Shown here piece after piece: positions 20,005-22,604 of a stretch of DNA of 64,000 nt. The notes beneath the pieces are model-generated. The model had not been told where the DNA came from. It saw only the letters and a program-made list of their open reading frames with translations, and searched no databases. Both the position numbers and the translations under genes were made by a program. Origin of the DNA: Minisyncoccota bacterium (lineage in GTDB: Bacteria > Patescibacteriota > Minisyncoccia > 2-02-FULL-40-12 > GWA2-44-9); NCBI GenBank assembly GCA_035524755.1, contig DATKOD010000003.1, forward strand, positions 2,206 to 66,205, in the 5' to 3' direction. Position 1 is the stretch's first letter. Each line of letters begins with the position of its first letter.

Positions 20005-20610
20005 ATGGCGCATCTGAGCGTATTCTTCAATCCGACCGCGCTCATCCAAACGGTTGGGTACGTCGGCATCGCGGCCGTCATCTTCACCGAATCCGGCCTC
20101 CTCATCGGTATCGTGCTTCCGGGAGATTCCGTCCTGTTCACGGCGGGTTTTCTGGCGTCGCAAGGATTGCTCAGCATCATCCCGCTCCTCATCATCTCGT
20201 TCACGATGGCCGCGCTGGGCGACAACGTCGGATACTGGCTCGGCAAGCGATTCGGCCCTTCGGTCTTCAAGCGGAAGGATTCGATTTTCCTGAATCCCGG
20301 GAACATCACACGGGCCGAAGCGTTCTATGAAGAGCACGGCACGAAAACCATCGTCCTCGCGCGGTTCATCCCGGTCATCCGTACATTGGCACCGCTCCTT
20401 GCGGGCGTCGGTTCCATGCATTGGCGCACGTTCATGACCTATAACCTGCTCGGGGCGTTCATCTGGGGCATCGGCGTCACGTTCACCGGCTACTGGCTCG
20501 GTGCGGTGATACCCGGCATCGACCGGTATATCATTCCCATCGTCCTGCTGATCATCTTCTCATCGGTCATTCCGCCGGCGTACAACTACTACCGTCAGCA
20601 CCGCCGATGA
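20005..20610 (+). CDS. DedA-family membrane protein
   Basis: Multi-TM protein with the DedA pattern: GLLIGIVLPGDSVLFTAGFLA...ARFIPVIRTLAPLLAGVGSM. Start at MAHLSVFF (internal to the track ORF 19885..20610). Confidence 0.85.
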   Translation: MAHLSVFFNPTALIQTVGYVGIAAVIFTESGLLIGIVLPGDSVLFTAGFLASQGLLSIIPLLIISFTMAALGDNVGYWLGKRFGPSVFKRKDSIFLNPGNITRAEAFYEEHGTKTIVLARFIPVIRTLAPLLAGVGSMHWRTFMTYNLLGAFIWGIGVTFTGYWLGAVIPGIDRYIIPIVLLIIFSSVIPPAYNYYRQHRR

Positions 20611-20828
20611 AGCGTGTCACTGTGCGTGTCCATCCCGGCGCACGGCATGCGTCCGTCGAACGGACCTCGCCTGACGAGTTCGCGATCGCCGTGCGTGAAC
20701 CGGCGGAACGCGGCCGCGCGACGGACGCGGCGCGTCGTGCACTCGCAGAGCATCTCGGCATCGCGCCGTCGCGCCTTTCGCTCATCATGGGGCACGCGTC
20801 GCGCGTGAAAGTTTTTTTGGTCCGATGA
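20607..20828 (+). CDS. DUF167 (YggU-like) protein
   Basis: 73 aa, MKRVTVRVHPGARHASVER..., a small conserved DUF167-type pattern. Confidence 0.65.
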   Translation: MKRVTVRVHPGARHASVERTSPDEFAIAVREPAERGRATDAARRALAEHLGIAPSRLSLIMGHASRVKVFLVR

Positions 20829-20854
20829 TTTCGTGAGTTATCCACTGTTTTTTC

Positions 20855-20883
20855 TTGGTATCGACCTCCGCGGTCTCTATAAT
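20855..20883 (+). promoter_or_regulatory. near-consensus sigma70 promoter (TTGGTA-17-TATAAT) driving the micro-ORF transcription unit
   Basis: Perfect -10 with a 17-nt spacer in the otherwise gene-free 20829-21176 interval. Confidence 0.5.
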
Positions 20884-20990
20884 GGATGTAGTTAGTTATT
20901 TCCACGGTATCTGTGACGGCAGTGAATGGTCCGGCCGCAAGGCCCACCCATTGGTCGGCCGTCATTGAAACAACCATAAGGAGGGATGCG

Positions 20991-21044
20991 ATGCACGCTG
21001 TATGCGCCGCGGCGCCTGCAAGGTGGATCGCTACCAACCCGTAA
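20991..21044 (+). CDS. 17-codon leader micro-ORF (MHAVCAAAPARWIATNP)
   Basis: A perfect AGGAGG lies 6 nt upstream. The stop TAA overlaps the next ATG (TAATG). Confidence 0.3.
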   Translation: MHAVCAAAPARWIATNP

Positions 21045-21097
21045 TGGCAAAGAAGAGAAAGGCCAAGAAGGCCGCCGCAAAGAAGAAGAAGAGGTAA
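21044..21097 (+). CDS. 17-codon lysine-rich micro-ORF (MAKKRKAKKAAAKKKKR), translationally coupled
   Basis: The ATG overlaps the upstream stop. An intrinsic terminator follows 16 nt later. Confidence 0.3.
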   Translation: MAKKRKAKKAAAKKKKR

Positions 21098-21112
21098 TCT
21101 CGTCTTCACTCG

Positions 21113-21140
21113 CAAACACCCCGTACGGGGTGTTTGCCTT
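21113..21140 (+). terminator. intrinsic terminator (CAAACACCCCG-ta-CGGGGTGTTTG + CCTTTCAT)
   Basis: Perfect 11-bp palindrome directly after the micro-ORF stop. Confidence 0.55.
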
Positions 21141-21152
21141 TCATGTGAAAAG

Positions 21153-21176
21153 AATCCCGCCTCCGGTGAGGCGGGA
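21153..21176 (-). terminator. intrinsic terminator for the convergent minus-strand gene (ATCCCGCCTC-cggt-GAGGCGGGAT, then CTTTTCAC on the minus strand)
   Basis: 10-bp stem overlapping the last codons of the 21177..22541 gene. Confidence 0.5.
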
Positions 21177-22541
21177 TCATGGTCTGACCGCGACAGGCGC
21201 CGATGCCGTGTACTCGTCGCGCAGGTATCGGAACTTATCCTGGACGTAGCCTTTCGTCTCGCTCAGGAGACACTGCCGGTACGTTGGCTTGCGACAGTCC
21301 GTACCACGGGCATCAACCCAGTCGGGCGAGTTCTTCTTGAGCGCGATGCGATAGACCGCGGTCACCCGCTTGGTGCCGGTATTGTATCCGGCGAACTGGA
21401 GCTCATCGATATGGGGATCGCTCATGATGGCCGTCCCGAACGCCTTCACGTAGTCGGCAAGCTGGAGATCCAGGAGCAGGATCGCCGCTTTCATGCTGTT
21501 GAGCGCCTGCCGCCGGCCGGTATTGGTGTCGGTCACGAGGCCTGCGGCCGGATATGCCTTCCGAACCATCGTATATGAACTCGCGATGAACTGCTGCGGA
21601 CCGCATGCGCCCGCCGGACTGCACGTGAACGATGCGAACATGTCGCCGTTGGCGCCGATGGTGGCGTAGACGCGGTTGGTCGTCCATTGCGGGTCCAAGA
21701 TGAACTCGGTCAGGTCCATGTGCTCGATGGGCATGATCTTGTCGATGGGGAACGCCTTCGGATATTTCGCGATGACGTCAGCGATGAGCATGCCGGGCAA
21801 CGCCCGCGAGACGACACCCCGCGCGCGTAGATCATCCGTCGCCTTCGCGATGGTATCCGCCACGTACCGTTGTCCTTCTGCGATCACGTCAGCCACCGCG
21901 ATCGGTTCGCTGTACGGTACGTTGATGAATTCGGTGACCCGCGGCTGTCCCTTCTTCGGTGCATCATTGACGATGGGATATTTCACCCCGACGACGATTG
22001 AATCGGACGGCGAAGCGATGGCGAACTGCGTGTTCCAGTTGTTCCACTCGATGCCGTTGGCACGGCGCACGACGCTCATCGCCCACCCCGCCGGCGCCTG
22101 GAGCACCGCGACCGGTTCATTCTTGATGGTCCACTTCGTGCCGGTGCGTGTCGCGACCGGGACGTTCATCTGCGCCATCCCGTACGTTTTCTTGACGGTG
22201 ATGACCGATGTCGTGCACGTCGTGGTGTTGAGCACCCGCACGGCGATGTCCTTGATGTAGTCCTTGTAGACCTTCAGGACGCCCAGACGCACTTCCACGT
22301 ATGAGTGGAGTTTCTGGTCGTACGACAACGATGCAGACGCCAACTGGACATCAGAAGGGGTCCCGGCGATGACTGAGGCGATGTCGCATGCGGGTTTCGG
22401 CGGCAGCACCGGAGACACATCCTCCGGCGCATAGAACCCGACCCGTACCGATGTCGGATCGGGTGCTTGTGCGTGCACCGATAGGACCCCGAAACCGACC
22501 GCGGCAATGACCGACGTTGTGGTGATCAGCAGTCTACGCAT
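21177..22541 (-). CDS. secreted hypothetical protein (signal peptide, several Cys pairs)
   Basis: Start at MRRLLITTTSVIAAVGFGVLSVHAQA (M18 of the track ORF); this signal peptide is cleavable. About 454 aa with no recognised domain. Confidence 0.7.
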   Translation of the reverse strand: MRRLLITTTSVIAAVGFGVLSVHAQAPDPTSVRVGFYAPEDVSPVLPPKPACDIASVIAGTPSDVQLASASLSYDQKLHSYVEVRLGVLKVYKDYIKDIAVRVLNTTTCTTSVITVKKTYGMAQMNVPVATRTGTKWTIKNEPVAVLQAPAGWAMSVVRRANGIEWNNWNTQFAIASPSDSIVVGVKYPIVNDAPKKGQPRVTEFINVPYSEPIAVADVIAEGQRYVADTIAKATDDLRARGVVSRALPGMLIADVIAKYPKAFPIDKIMPIEHMDLTEFILDPQWTTNRVYATIGANGDMFASFTCSPAGACGPQQFIASSYTMVRKAYPAAGLVTDTNTGRRQALNSMKAAILLLDLQLADYVKAFGTAIMSDPHIDELQFAGYNTGTKRVTAVYRIALKKNSPDWVDARGTDCRKPTYRQCLLSETKGYVQDKFRYLRDEYTASAPVAVRP

Positions 22542-22604
22542 ATGCTCCTTTTGTACTGAGGGTTGGGAACGAACCCGGGAACGATACCACACTGTCGGCC
22601 GTCC

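Follow-up and report, generated by a model that had tools for sequence, protein, structure and literature searches.

A conserved candidate micro-protein gene with a structured leader in Patescibacteria

In a 64-kb stretch of DNA from a Minisyncoccota bacterium (GenBank assembly GCA_035524755.1, contig DATKOD010000003.1; hereafter the window), a short gap between two convergent genes carries a small transcription unit, in which a promoter with an upstream box is followed by a structured leader, a 17-codon lysine-rich open reading frame (ORF2) and an intrinsic terminator. According to our analysis, this unit is probably an autonomous, monocistronic gene of the Patescibacteria (candidate phyla radiation, CPR) for a polycationic, nucleic-acid-binding micro-protein. 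The unit family is real and conserved and, as far as the literature was searched, undescribed, and its leader appears to be a new RNA motif. All coordinates refer to the plus strand of the window unless stated otherwise.

The gap measures about 348 nucleotides (nt), from the stop of a DUF167 gene (20828) to the stop of a gene for a 471-amino-acid (aa) protein (21177), in agreement with the 350 nt given in the first-pass annotation, which had described the region as a micro-transcription unit with two coupled short ORFs. The upstream side of the gap is a DedA(VTT)-DUF167 operon, and the DUF167 stop codon (20826–20828) lies 8 nt before the box. The near-perfect sigma-70 promoter of the annotation consists of TTGGTA (20855–20860), a 17-nt spacer and TATAAT (20878–20883), with 10 of 12 matches, and its AGGAGG (20979–20984), ORF1, ORF2, TAATG overlap of the ORF1 stop and ORF2 start (21042–21046) and 11-bp terminator could all be located in the sequence. 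The leader, in whose hairpin-rich part GGCCGCAAGGCC occupies 20933–20944, is structured as proposed, but it extends for ~154 nt up to ORF2 and not for ~100 nt. The predicted transcript also folds much better than its shuffled copies (z = -4.98; 0 of 200 shuffles equally good). Beyond the features noted earlier, the unit contains the AGTTATCCAC box upstream of the -35 element, a hairpin (P1) with a GGUCG loop and a small hairpin around the stop codon, and the box and the GGUCG loop are its two most conserved signals. The parts of the unit are as follows.

20836–20845, plus strand: AGTTATCCAC box (TTATCCAC[T/A], the DnaA-box consensus), 9 nt upstream of the -35 element.
20855–20883, plus strand: sigma-70-type promoter (TTGGTA-17-TATAAT, 10/12 matches), with transcription predicted to start near 20890.
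20913–20965, plus strand: leader hairpin P1, found in the minimum free energy (MFE) fold, with compensatory changes in P1a.
20953–20957, plus strand: unpaired GGUCG loop in the 3' arm of P1, immediately ahead of the closing strand.
20974–21047, plus strand: long hairpin P2, with covariation on 11 sequences.
20991–21044, plus strand: ORF1 (MHAVCAAAPARWIATNP), an open frame inside P2 and not a conserved gene.
21044–21097, plus strand: ORF2 (MAKKRKAKKAAAKKKKR), a conserved Lys/Ala-rich micro-protein gene with orthologous ORFs and a coding signature.
21085–21107, plus strand: hairpin P3 with the stop codon in its loop, from the MFE fold and cross-unit helix statistics.
21112–21137, plus strand: intrinsic terminator, with an 11-bp perfect stem, a 4-nt GTAC loop and a weak T run after it.

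Relatives of the unit were collected by two scans. First, metagenome contigs were scanned with the neighbouring DedA protein, which gave 80 loci. In the closest relatives (L002–L004, 62–78% DedA identity), a homologous unit lies at the same place downstream of the DedA neighbour, with the sequence of L002 ending before ORF2, and a screen of all 80 loci for Lys-rich mini-ORFs added one unit from an AT-rich genome at a different genomic position (L024). The 10-mer AGTTATCCAC is present in exactly 5 of the 80 loci, namely the five with the unit, where it lies 190–210 nt upstream of the Lys-rich ORF. Second, a pattern consisting of the box, a short T-rich tail, a gap of 168–198 nt and only the first four ORF2 codons was found in at least 119 loci. 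Among the matches listed, about 68 are Patescibacteria metagenome-assembled genomes (MAGs), where reading on past these codons gives a full Lys-rich peptide such as MAAKKKAKKVAKKAKKTTKKRA; their labels, given as deposited like all taxon labels here, are Paceibacterota, Minisyncoccia, Yanofsky-, Yonath- and Nomurabacteria, Moraniibacteriota, Parcubacteria and 'Saccharibacteria', and the non-CPR matches among those listed were ordinary proteins, or rpmH beside dnaA. Altogether, 67 distinct units including that of the window were collected, 65 of which were kept for composition and leader statistics. The nearest relative is Ca. Paceibacterota SMAG_U15170 (L120), which has an identical 17-aa peptide. 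A scan of genome contigs with the neighbouring 471-aa protein revealed no relatives, and scanning viral contigs with the pattern gave chance or phage DnaA-box matches only.

One contig labelled as Simkania sp. (L110, JAGXTH010000060.1) carries a leader almost identical to that of a Ca. Paceibacterota locus (L106), with SecA downstream; it probably derives from a Patescibacteria genome and was wrongly binned into a Chlamydiota MAG.

The recurrence of the unit decides whether it could be a chance assembly of consensus-like signals with no function. Promoter- and terminator-like matches in the region are no more frequent than in shuffled sequence, as such an assembly would predict, so the proof against chance comes from conservation and not from signal frequency. 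The same ordered architecture stands in 66 other distinct units from genomes of 28–62% GC, together with covariation and a coding signature, which already refutes a chance origin and leaves it hardly conceivable.

The evidence that ORF2 encodes a protein comes from its pattern of variation. Among the 65 distinct orthologous ORFs, the peptide is 12–42 aa long and consists of K (53%), A (26%), R (6%) and V and T (5% each), with no Asp or Glu, and both termini are conserved (MAA or MAK at the N terminus, KRA or KKR at the C terminus). The G+C content at third codon positions (GC3) follows that of the locus (Spearman rho 0.76, p 2e-13, slope 1.75), with GC1 and GC2 remaining flat, and the differences between close pairs at codon positions 1/2/3 number 14/22/50. 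ORF2 of the window and that of L120 differ by a single synonymous change. Position-specific substitutions and a frame kept open across divergent genomes were therefore found for ORF2 and not for ORF1, and on these signatures ORF2 is judged to be a conserved protein-coding gene, as the annotation had supposed for the Lys-rich ORF.

In contrast, ORF1, which had been taken for a second gene, is not conserved as an ORF, and its sequence is kept as an RNA helix. It lies in a different frame and has 8 codons in L004, in L172, L191 and L203 no ATG is suitably spaced from the Shine–Dalgarno (SD)-like sequence, and in L003 and L120 the junction stop is missing and ORF1 continues in the +1 frame. The TAATG coupling is accordingly absent even in the nearest relative, and termination-reinitiation between ORF1 and ORF2 was rejected as a conserved mechanism. 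In hairpin P2, the SD-like AAGGAGGG (20978–20985) pairs with a C-rich tract (21033–21039), GCGAU (20988–20992) pairs with AUCGC (21027–21031) to form the inner helix, on which ORF1 lies, the CCAU:AUGG base pairs the ORF2 start codon, and the apex is a 12-nt perfect palindrome, GCGCCGCGGCGC (21004–21015). When this pairing was examined on 11 sequences, 89% of the cells were paired compared with 31–41% with slid partners, nine pairs had changed on both sides, and none of 500 shuffles reached the observed score. ORF1 is therefore judged not to be a gene but an open frame on an RNA helix, in spite of its strong SD, and the two coupled ORFs become one gene preceded by an RNA hairpin. By the same reasoning, the TAATG coupling is lineage-specific and probably incidental.

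The form of P2 differs among lineages. In the window's clade, it spans ~74 nt, and the SD-like sequence within it (AAGGAGGR), which is the only one there, keeps a fixed distance of 59–61 nt to the ORF2 AUG in 11 of 15 relatives. In many AT-rich genomes, P2 is a short GCAA-tetraloop hairpin, and it is missing in L101 and L165. The GCGCCGCGGCGC apex is nearly invariant in the window's clade, even in the much more AT-rich L172, L203 and L206. Since this conservation exceeds what pairing needs, the apex could be a protein site or a site for RNA-RNA kissing or dimerisation.

Upstream of the gene, the box and the promoter form a second conserved module. The window promoter is the tied best promoter-like site in 12 kb, and a -10 element of TATAAT or GATAAT occurs at the equivalent place in 56 of 65 units. 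With respect to the DnaA-box consensus TTATNCACA, the window's TTATCCACT matches at 8 of 9 positions, and most units have TTATCCACA. The 8-mer TTATCCAC is present as a single copy in the window, at the box, and in ~980 kb of CPR DNA it was found 64 times at units and 22 times elsewhere, compared with ~29 expected by composition. In addition, the distance from the box to the -10 element is trimodal (39–43, 50–53 and 60–62 bp), with steps of about one helical turn, as expected for a bound regulator obliged to face the polymerase. The same 10-mer marks the rpmH-dnaA regions of ordinary bacteria, where DnaA boxes are expected. DnaA-box-like sequences have also been described near a CPR origin (PMC4736985).

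In its layout, the unit resembles the DnaA-box promoters of dnaA, nrdAB and sda, in which a sigma-70-type promoter is closely preceded, in helical phase, by a consensus 9-mer TTATCCAC(A/T); it differs in having a single box and a target gene of an unfamiliar kind, and DnaA binding is here a prediction. The unit as a replication origin was considered and rejected, as no dnaA lies near any CPR unit, each has a single box, and no clear skew turn is seen. In several AT-rich units (L102, L106, L107, L126 and L199), GTTT-TGTGAAAAA follows the box. This stretch, which the window lacks, could be another DnaA-box-like half site, inverted and weaker, with 7 of 9 matches to TGTGGATAA. A viral contig (L089:45-110, IMGVR_UViG_3300014206_000551) contains three closely spaced direct copies of GAGTTATCCACTG, the same extended box as that of the window's unit. 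Such repeats would fit DnaA boxes or the iterons of a phage origin.

The leader itself is organised around P1, in which GTGACGGC (20913–20920) pairs with GCCGTCAT (20958–20965) and encloses an inner stem, AATGG/CCATT, with a GGCC-GCAA-GGCC cap, all of which the MFE fold predicts. Within the window's clade, compensatory changes affect the P1a pairs, and the closing stem is wholly different between clades (GCAATAA/TTATTGC, GTGATGCGA/TTGCATCAT and GCATCG/CGATGC). No 5-mer of the leaders is better conserved than GGUCG, which precedes the 3' strand of P1 and was found in 62 of 65 units, mostly from AT-rich genomes; it is also conserved in alignment A2. A pseudoknot between GGUCG and a CGACC-like sequence near the start codon was seen by eye in some units only and inconsistently, and a T-loop or k-turn lacks its signature nucleotides; both proposals were dropped.

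At the other end of the unit, the last Lys/Arg codons pair in P3 with the pyrimidine tract TCTCGTCTTC, as predicted by the MFE fold, and across the units the mean longest helix is 5.6, compared with 5.07 +/- 0.12 when partners were swapped between units and 4.53 +/- 0.13 in shuffled sequence. A terminator was found by the strict rule in 44 of 66 units, usually 6–35 nt after the ORF2 stop and also where secA lies just downstream, which agrees with the autonomy proposed in the first-pass annotation. With Rfam (15), the whole window at gathering score gave tRNAs only, the region 20780–21200 at E <= 10 gave terminator-like noise only, and 18 related loci at gathering score gave no family at the units, with raiA, 6S, SRP, tmRNA and riboswitches covered; thus, the Rfam check that had been suggested for the region found no family to account for it.

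These features raise the alternative that the RNA is the functional product, either regulatory or structural or with a dual function, such that P1-GGUCG and P2 act and the Lys-rich ORF is translated for a secondary purpose only, for instance to tune RNA stability or sense translation status. The transcript would be a ~250-nt RNA with its own promoter and terminator, its most conserved element lies in the leader, P1 and P2 show covariation, and at ~150 nt the leader is three times as long as the ORF. The usual position before hpf or secA also mirrors that of the raiA motif of Firmicutes and Actinobacteria, a structured RNA of ~200 nt that likewise has a promoter and terminator to itself and lies in the same hpf-secA neighbourhood, although the two were compared by Rfam scans only. 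Unlike raiA, the unit carries a conserved coding ORF and has no Rfam match, to raiA or to any other family. The coding signature of ORF2 (GC3, third positions, termini, an always-open frame, no acidic residues) argues against an RNA product, as does the high variability in length and sequence of distal P1 and the whole of P2, including the loss of P2 in two units. This variability fits a regulatory 5' untranslated region better than a catalytic or ligand-binding RNA, and we consider it unlikely that the RNA is the main product.

The genomic neighbourhood suggests another alternative, in which the unit is a cis-acting attenuator or upstream ORF for hpf or secA that senses Lys-tRNA or translation capacity and sets read-through accordingly, with the window copy as an orphaned remnant. 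In at least 23 units, SecA is encoded downstream on the same strand, at 36–220 nt by raw ORF calls and at 54–218 nt to the aligned N terminus in most, and HPF (Ribosomal_S30AE) lies downstream in 5 units. A tiny ORF dominated by one residue and followed by a close terminator is classical attenuator anatomy, as known for hisL, pheL and thrL and, with secA downstream, for SecM-secA, and the stop codon within a small hairpin adjoining the terminator would fit as well.

However, the terminator sits between the unit and secA, and of 18 cases examined, ~16 have a separate extended -10 promoter (TRTGnTAnnAT) for secA, 6–9 nt ahead of the secA ATG. This arrangement suggests that the secA mRNA is leaderless and independently transcribed, with no dependence on read-through, and no downstream same-strand gene that depends on read-through was found. 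In addition, at least 14 units, among them all those of the window's clade, face a convergent gene downstream, and the box, P1, P2, ORF and terminator are all kept there under purifying selection; the 64-kb window contains neither secA nor hpf. Conservation of all parts without a cis target points to a product that acts in trans. Apart from the small P3, a non-exhaustive search showed no alternative pairing for the terminator arm, and the peptides, composed of K, A, R, V and T only, have no signal sequence, hydrophobic segment or arrest motif of the SecM kind. Overall, an attenuator function seems quite improbable.

Other features of the neighbourhood were recorded. The upstream neighbours of the units are Ddl-like, MurB or DedA proteins, with one clade showing 16S rRNA, ddl, unit and secA in succession. 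In L101, L102, L106, L109, L134, L151 and L158, the strand of the unit also bears a 16S rRNA gene a few kb further upstream, followed by a tRNA gene in L134 and by a Ddl-like ATP-grasp gene, the unit and secA in L158 and L109; the 8-kb loci contain no 23S rRNA, so the rRNA genes appear unlinked. The extended -10 without SD before secA was noted in L024, L096, L106–L109, L145, L152, L158, L164, L165, L168, L178, L179, L193, L195 and L199. In the window's clade, the convergent gene encodes a homologue of the 471-aa protein (21177–22592, minus strand in the window; 52% identity between the window and L120), which has no Pfam domain and an N terminus that resembles a signal peptide, as judged by eye only. 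Immediately beyond the stop of this gene, a second G+C-rich hairpin, ATCCCGCC...GGCGGGAT, is followed by a T-rich run (21152–21176, minus strand), so that the gap holds two back-to-back terminators. The final codons of the DUF167 gene contain a further terminator-like hairpin, CACGCGTCGCGCGTG, together with a T run (20793–20815). Long minus-strand ORFs over the region (20567–21115 and 20892–21119) are absent from the ENA and JGI gene calls.

What kind of protein the gene would encode can be judged from the composition of the peptides. They contain AKK-type repeats and vary in length, with no acidic and no bulky hydrophobic residues, and a nucleic-acid-binding counter-ion is therefore the most likely kind of product. 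Particularly, the variable length and the repeats favour non-specific binding to polyanions in the manner of histone H1 tails. The same unit, with box and GGTCG, encodes longer Lys/Arg/Pro-repeat proteins in two further MAGs labelled 'Saccharibacteria' (89 aa in L133:2637-2906 and 56 aa in L177:7647-7817), and their KRKPAKK-type repeats resemble histone H1 tails. The tiny basic nucleic-acid- or ribosome-associated peptide of the first-pass annotation thus remains the most plausible kind of product, but membership in a bS22- or Thx-type family could not be demonstrated by model search. Using hmmscan with 7 representative peptides against NCBIfam and Pfam at E <= 10, no ribosomal family and no other family model was matched; a 31-aa in-frame ORF of the window had no Pfam match, the peptides matched no chain in the PDB, and a protein database search with a 42-aa orthologue gave no match. 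At 13–42 codons, the ORF2 gene is shorter and less complex than gene callers and family databases can handle. Literature searches on small or Lys-rich proteins of Patescibacteria, ribosome structures, DnaA boxes and RNA motifs found no earlier description and no Patescibacteria ribosome structure reporting such a peptide, and a paper on arrest peptides (EMBO J 2025, PMC12992588) has no bearing on the unit.

Several known systems resemble the unit in part, but by the features compared it could not be placed among the tiny ribosomal proteins, the H1-like tails, the attenuator leaders or the raiA RNAs. bTHX of Thermus, bS22 and bL37 of Actinobacteria, and eL41 of eukaryotes and archaea are, like the ORF2 peptide, ~17–35 aa long and extremely positively charged, and they are stand-alone micro-genes usually missed by annotation; an RNA-binding filler role like theirs would suit the ORF2 peptide. 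These proteins have a fixed length, can be aligned and are Arg-rich with aromatic or hydrophobic anchors. The ORF2 family differs from them in its Lys/Ala low-complexity sequence and its range of 12–89 aa, it has no counterpart in NCBIfam, Pfam or PDB, and it is known here from sequence alone. Among Lys/Ala/Pro-repeat DNA-binding proteins and tails, Chlamydia Hc1/Hc2, Pseudomonas AlgP and the C-terminal tail of mycobacterial HupB/MDP1 share AKK/KKxA-type repeats, the lack of acidic residues and a variable repeat number, and the L133 and L177 proteins look like short versions of such H1-like proteins. However, these examples are at least ~100 aa long or are tails on folded domains, whereas here the tail is the whole protein, usually of ~20 aa, and no family model was matched. 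From the attenuator and SecM leaders, which share the very short one-residue-dominated ORF, the terminator and, in most genomes, a downstream secA, the unit is set apart by the separate secA promoter, the many units with no downstream gene and the absence of a signal sequence or arrest motif, and no antiterminator was seen in the non-exhaustive search.

Taking the unit as a gene for a polycationic micro-protein, we propose the following mechanism. The sigma-70-type promoter, with its DnaA-box-like site on a fixed helix face, would produce a transcript of ~250 nt that comprises the structured leader (P1 with GGUCG, and P2 before the start codon), the 17-codon ORF, the stop-codon hairpin and the terminator. 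Transcription would be set by a protein bound to the box, most likely DnaA in view of the 8–9 of 9 matches to TTATCCACA, and the leader, with the help of a factor recognising its GGUCG loop, would control translation or stability. For the window's clade, we propose that the base of P2 locks up both the ORF2 start codon and the sole SD-like sequence, and initiation would need the opening of P2, either by a factor acting on the leader or by ribosomes loaded at the upstream SD-like sequence, with ORF1 being translated where it is present. The peptide would then serve as a polycationic binder, or counter-ion, of rRNA and ribosomes or of DNA, and not as an enzyme or a membrane peptide. The neighbourhood of hpf, secA and 16S rRNA gives a weak hint towards the ribosome. 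More tentatively, and as a possibility that we consider doubtful rather than probable, the unit may be a phylum-wide, previously unrecognised component, in which a poly-Lys/Ala peptide of ~20 residues is stoichiometric in the ribosome or nucleoid of these ultra-small cells, its synthesis is tied to DnaA via the dedicated box, and feedback is exerted via the GGUCG leader recognised by the peptide or a partner.

Several points weigh against this proposal. The assignment of the box to DnaA is drawn from a consensus match only, the target of the peptide is purely inferred, with no match in Pfam, NCBIfam, PDB or the protein databases, and all that is known of the unit here derives from DNA sequence. 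Because the peptide is of low complexity, homology among the units is argued from context and composition and not from alignable sequence. The outer P2 pairs, which would sequester the SD and AUG, are conserved but invariant, so that covariation cannot confirm them. In most AT-rich relatives, an SD-like sequence is lacking and the region around the start is fairly open, so the translational lock may be confined to the window's clade. In addition, the scan pattern demanded the box, and the set free of this bias comprises 5 units only, so box-less units of other lineages would escape; in ~1.5 Mb of sequence examined, 0 box-less Lys-rich ORFs were found.

Patescibacteria account for a large share of bacterial diversity and have minimal genomes and reduced ribosomes. 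To our knowledge, very few conserved Patescibacteria genes are missing from annotation. If the peptide is a component of the ribosome or nucleoid, it would be a new entry on the parts list of a minimal cell. Through the DnaA-box-like site, replication initiation would be tied to gene expression in a way that is rare and open to direct testing, in organisms that resist cultivation, and the GGUCG leader is a candidate for a new cis-regulatory RNA motif. The unit also offers a lesson for the reading of small genes, in that an apparently perfect ORF1 with a strong SD turns out to be an RNA helix and not a gene.

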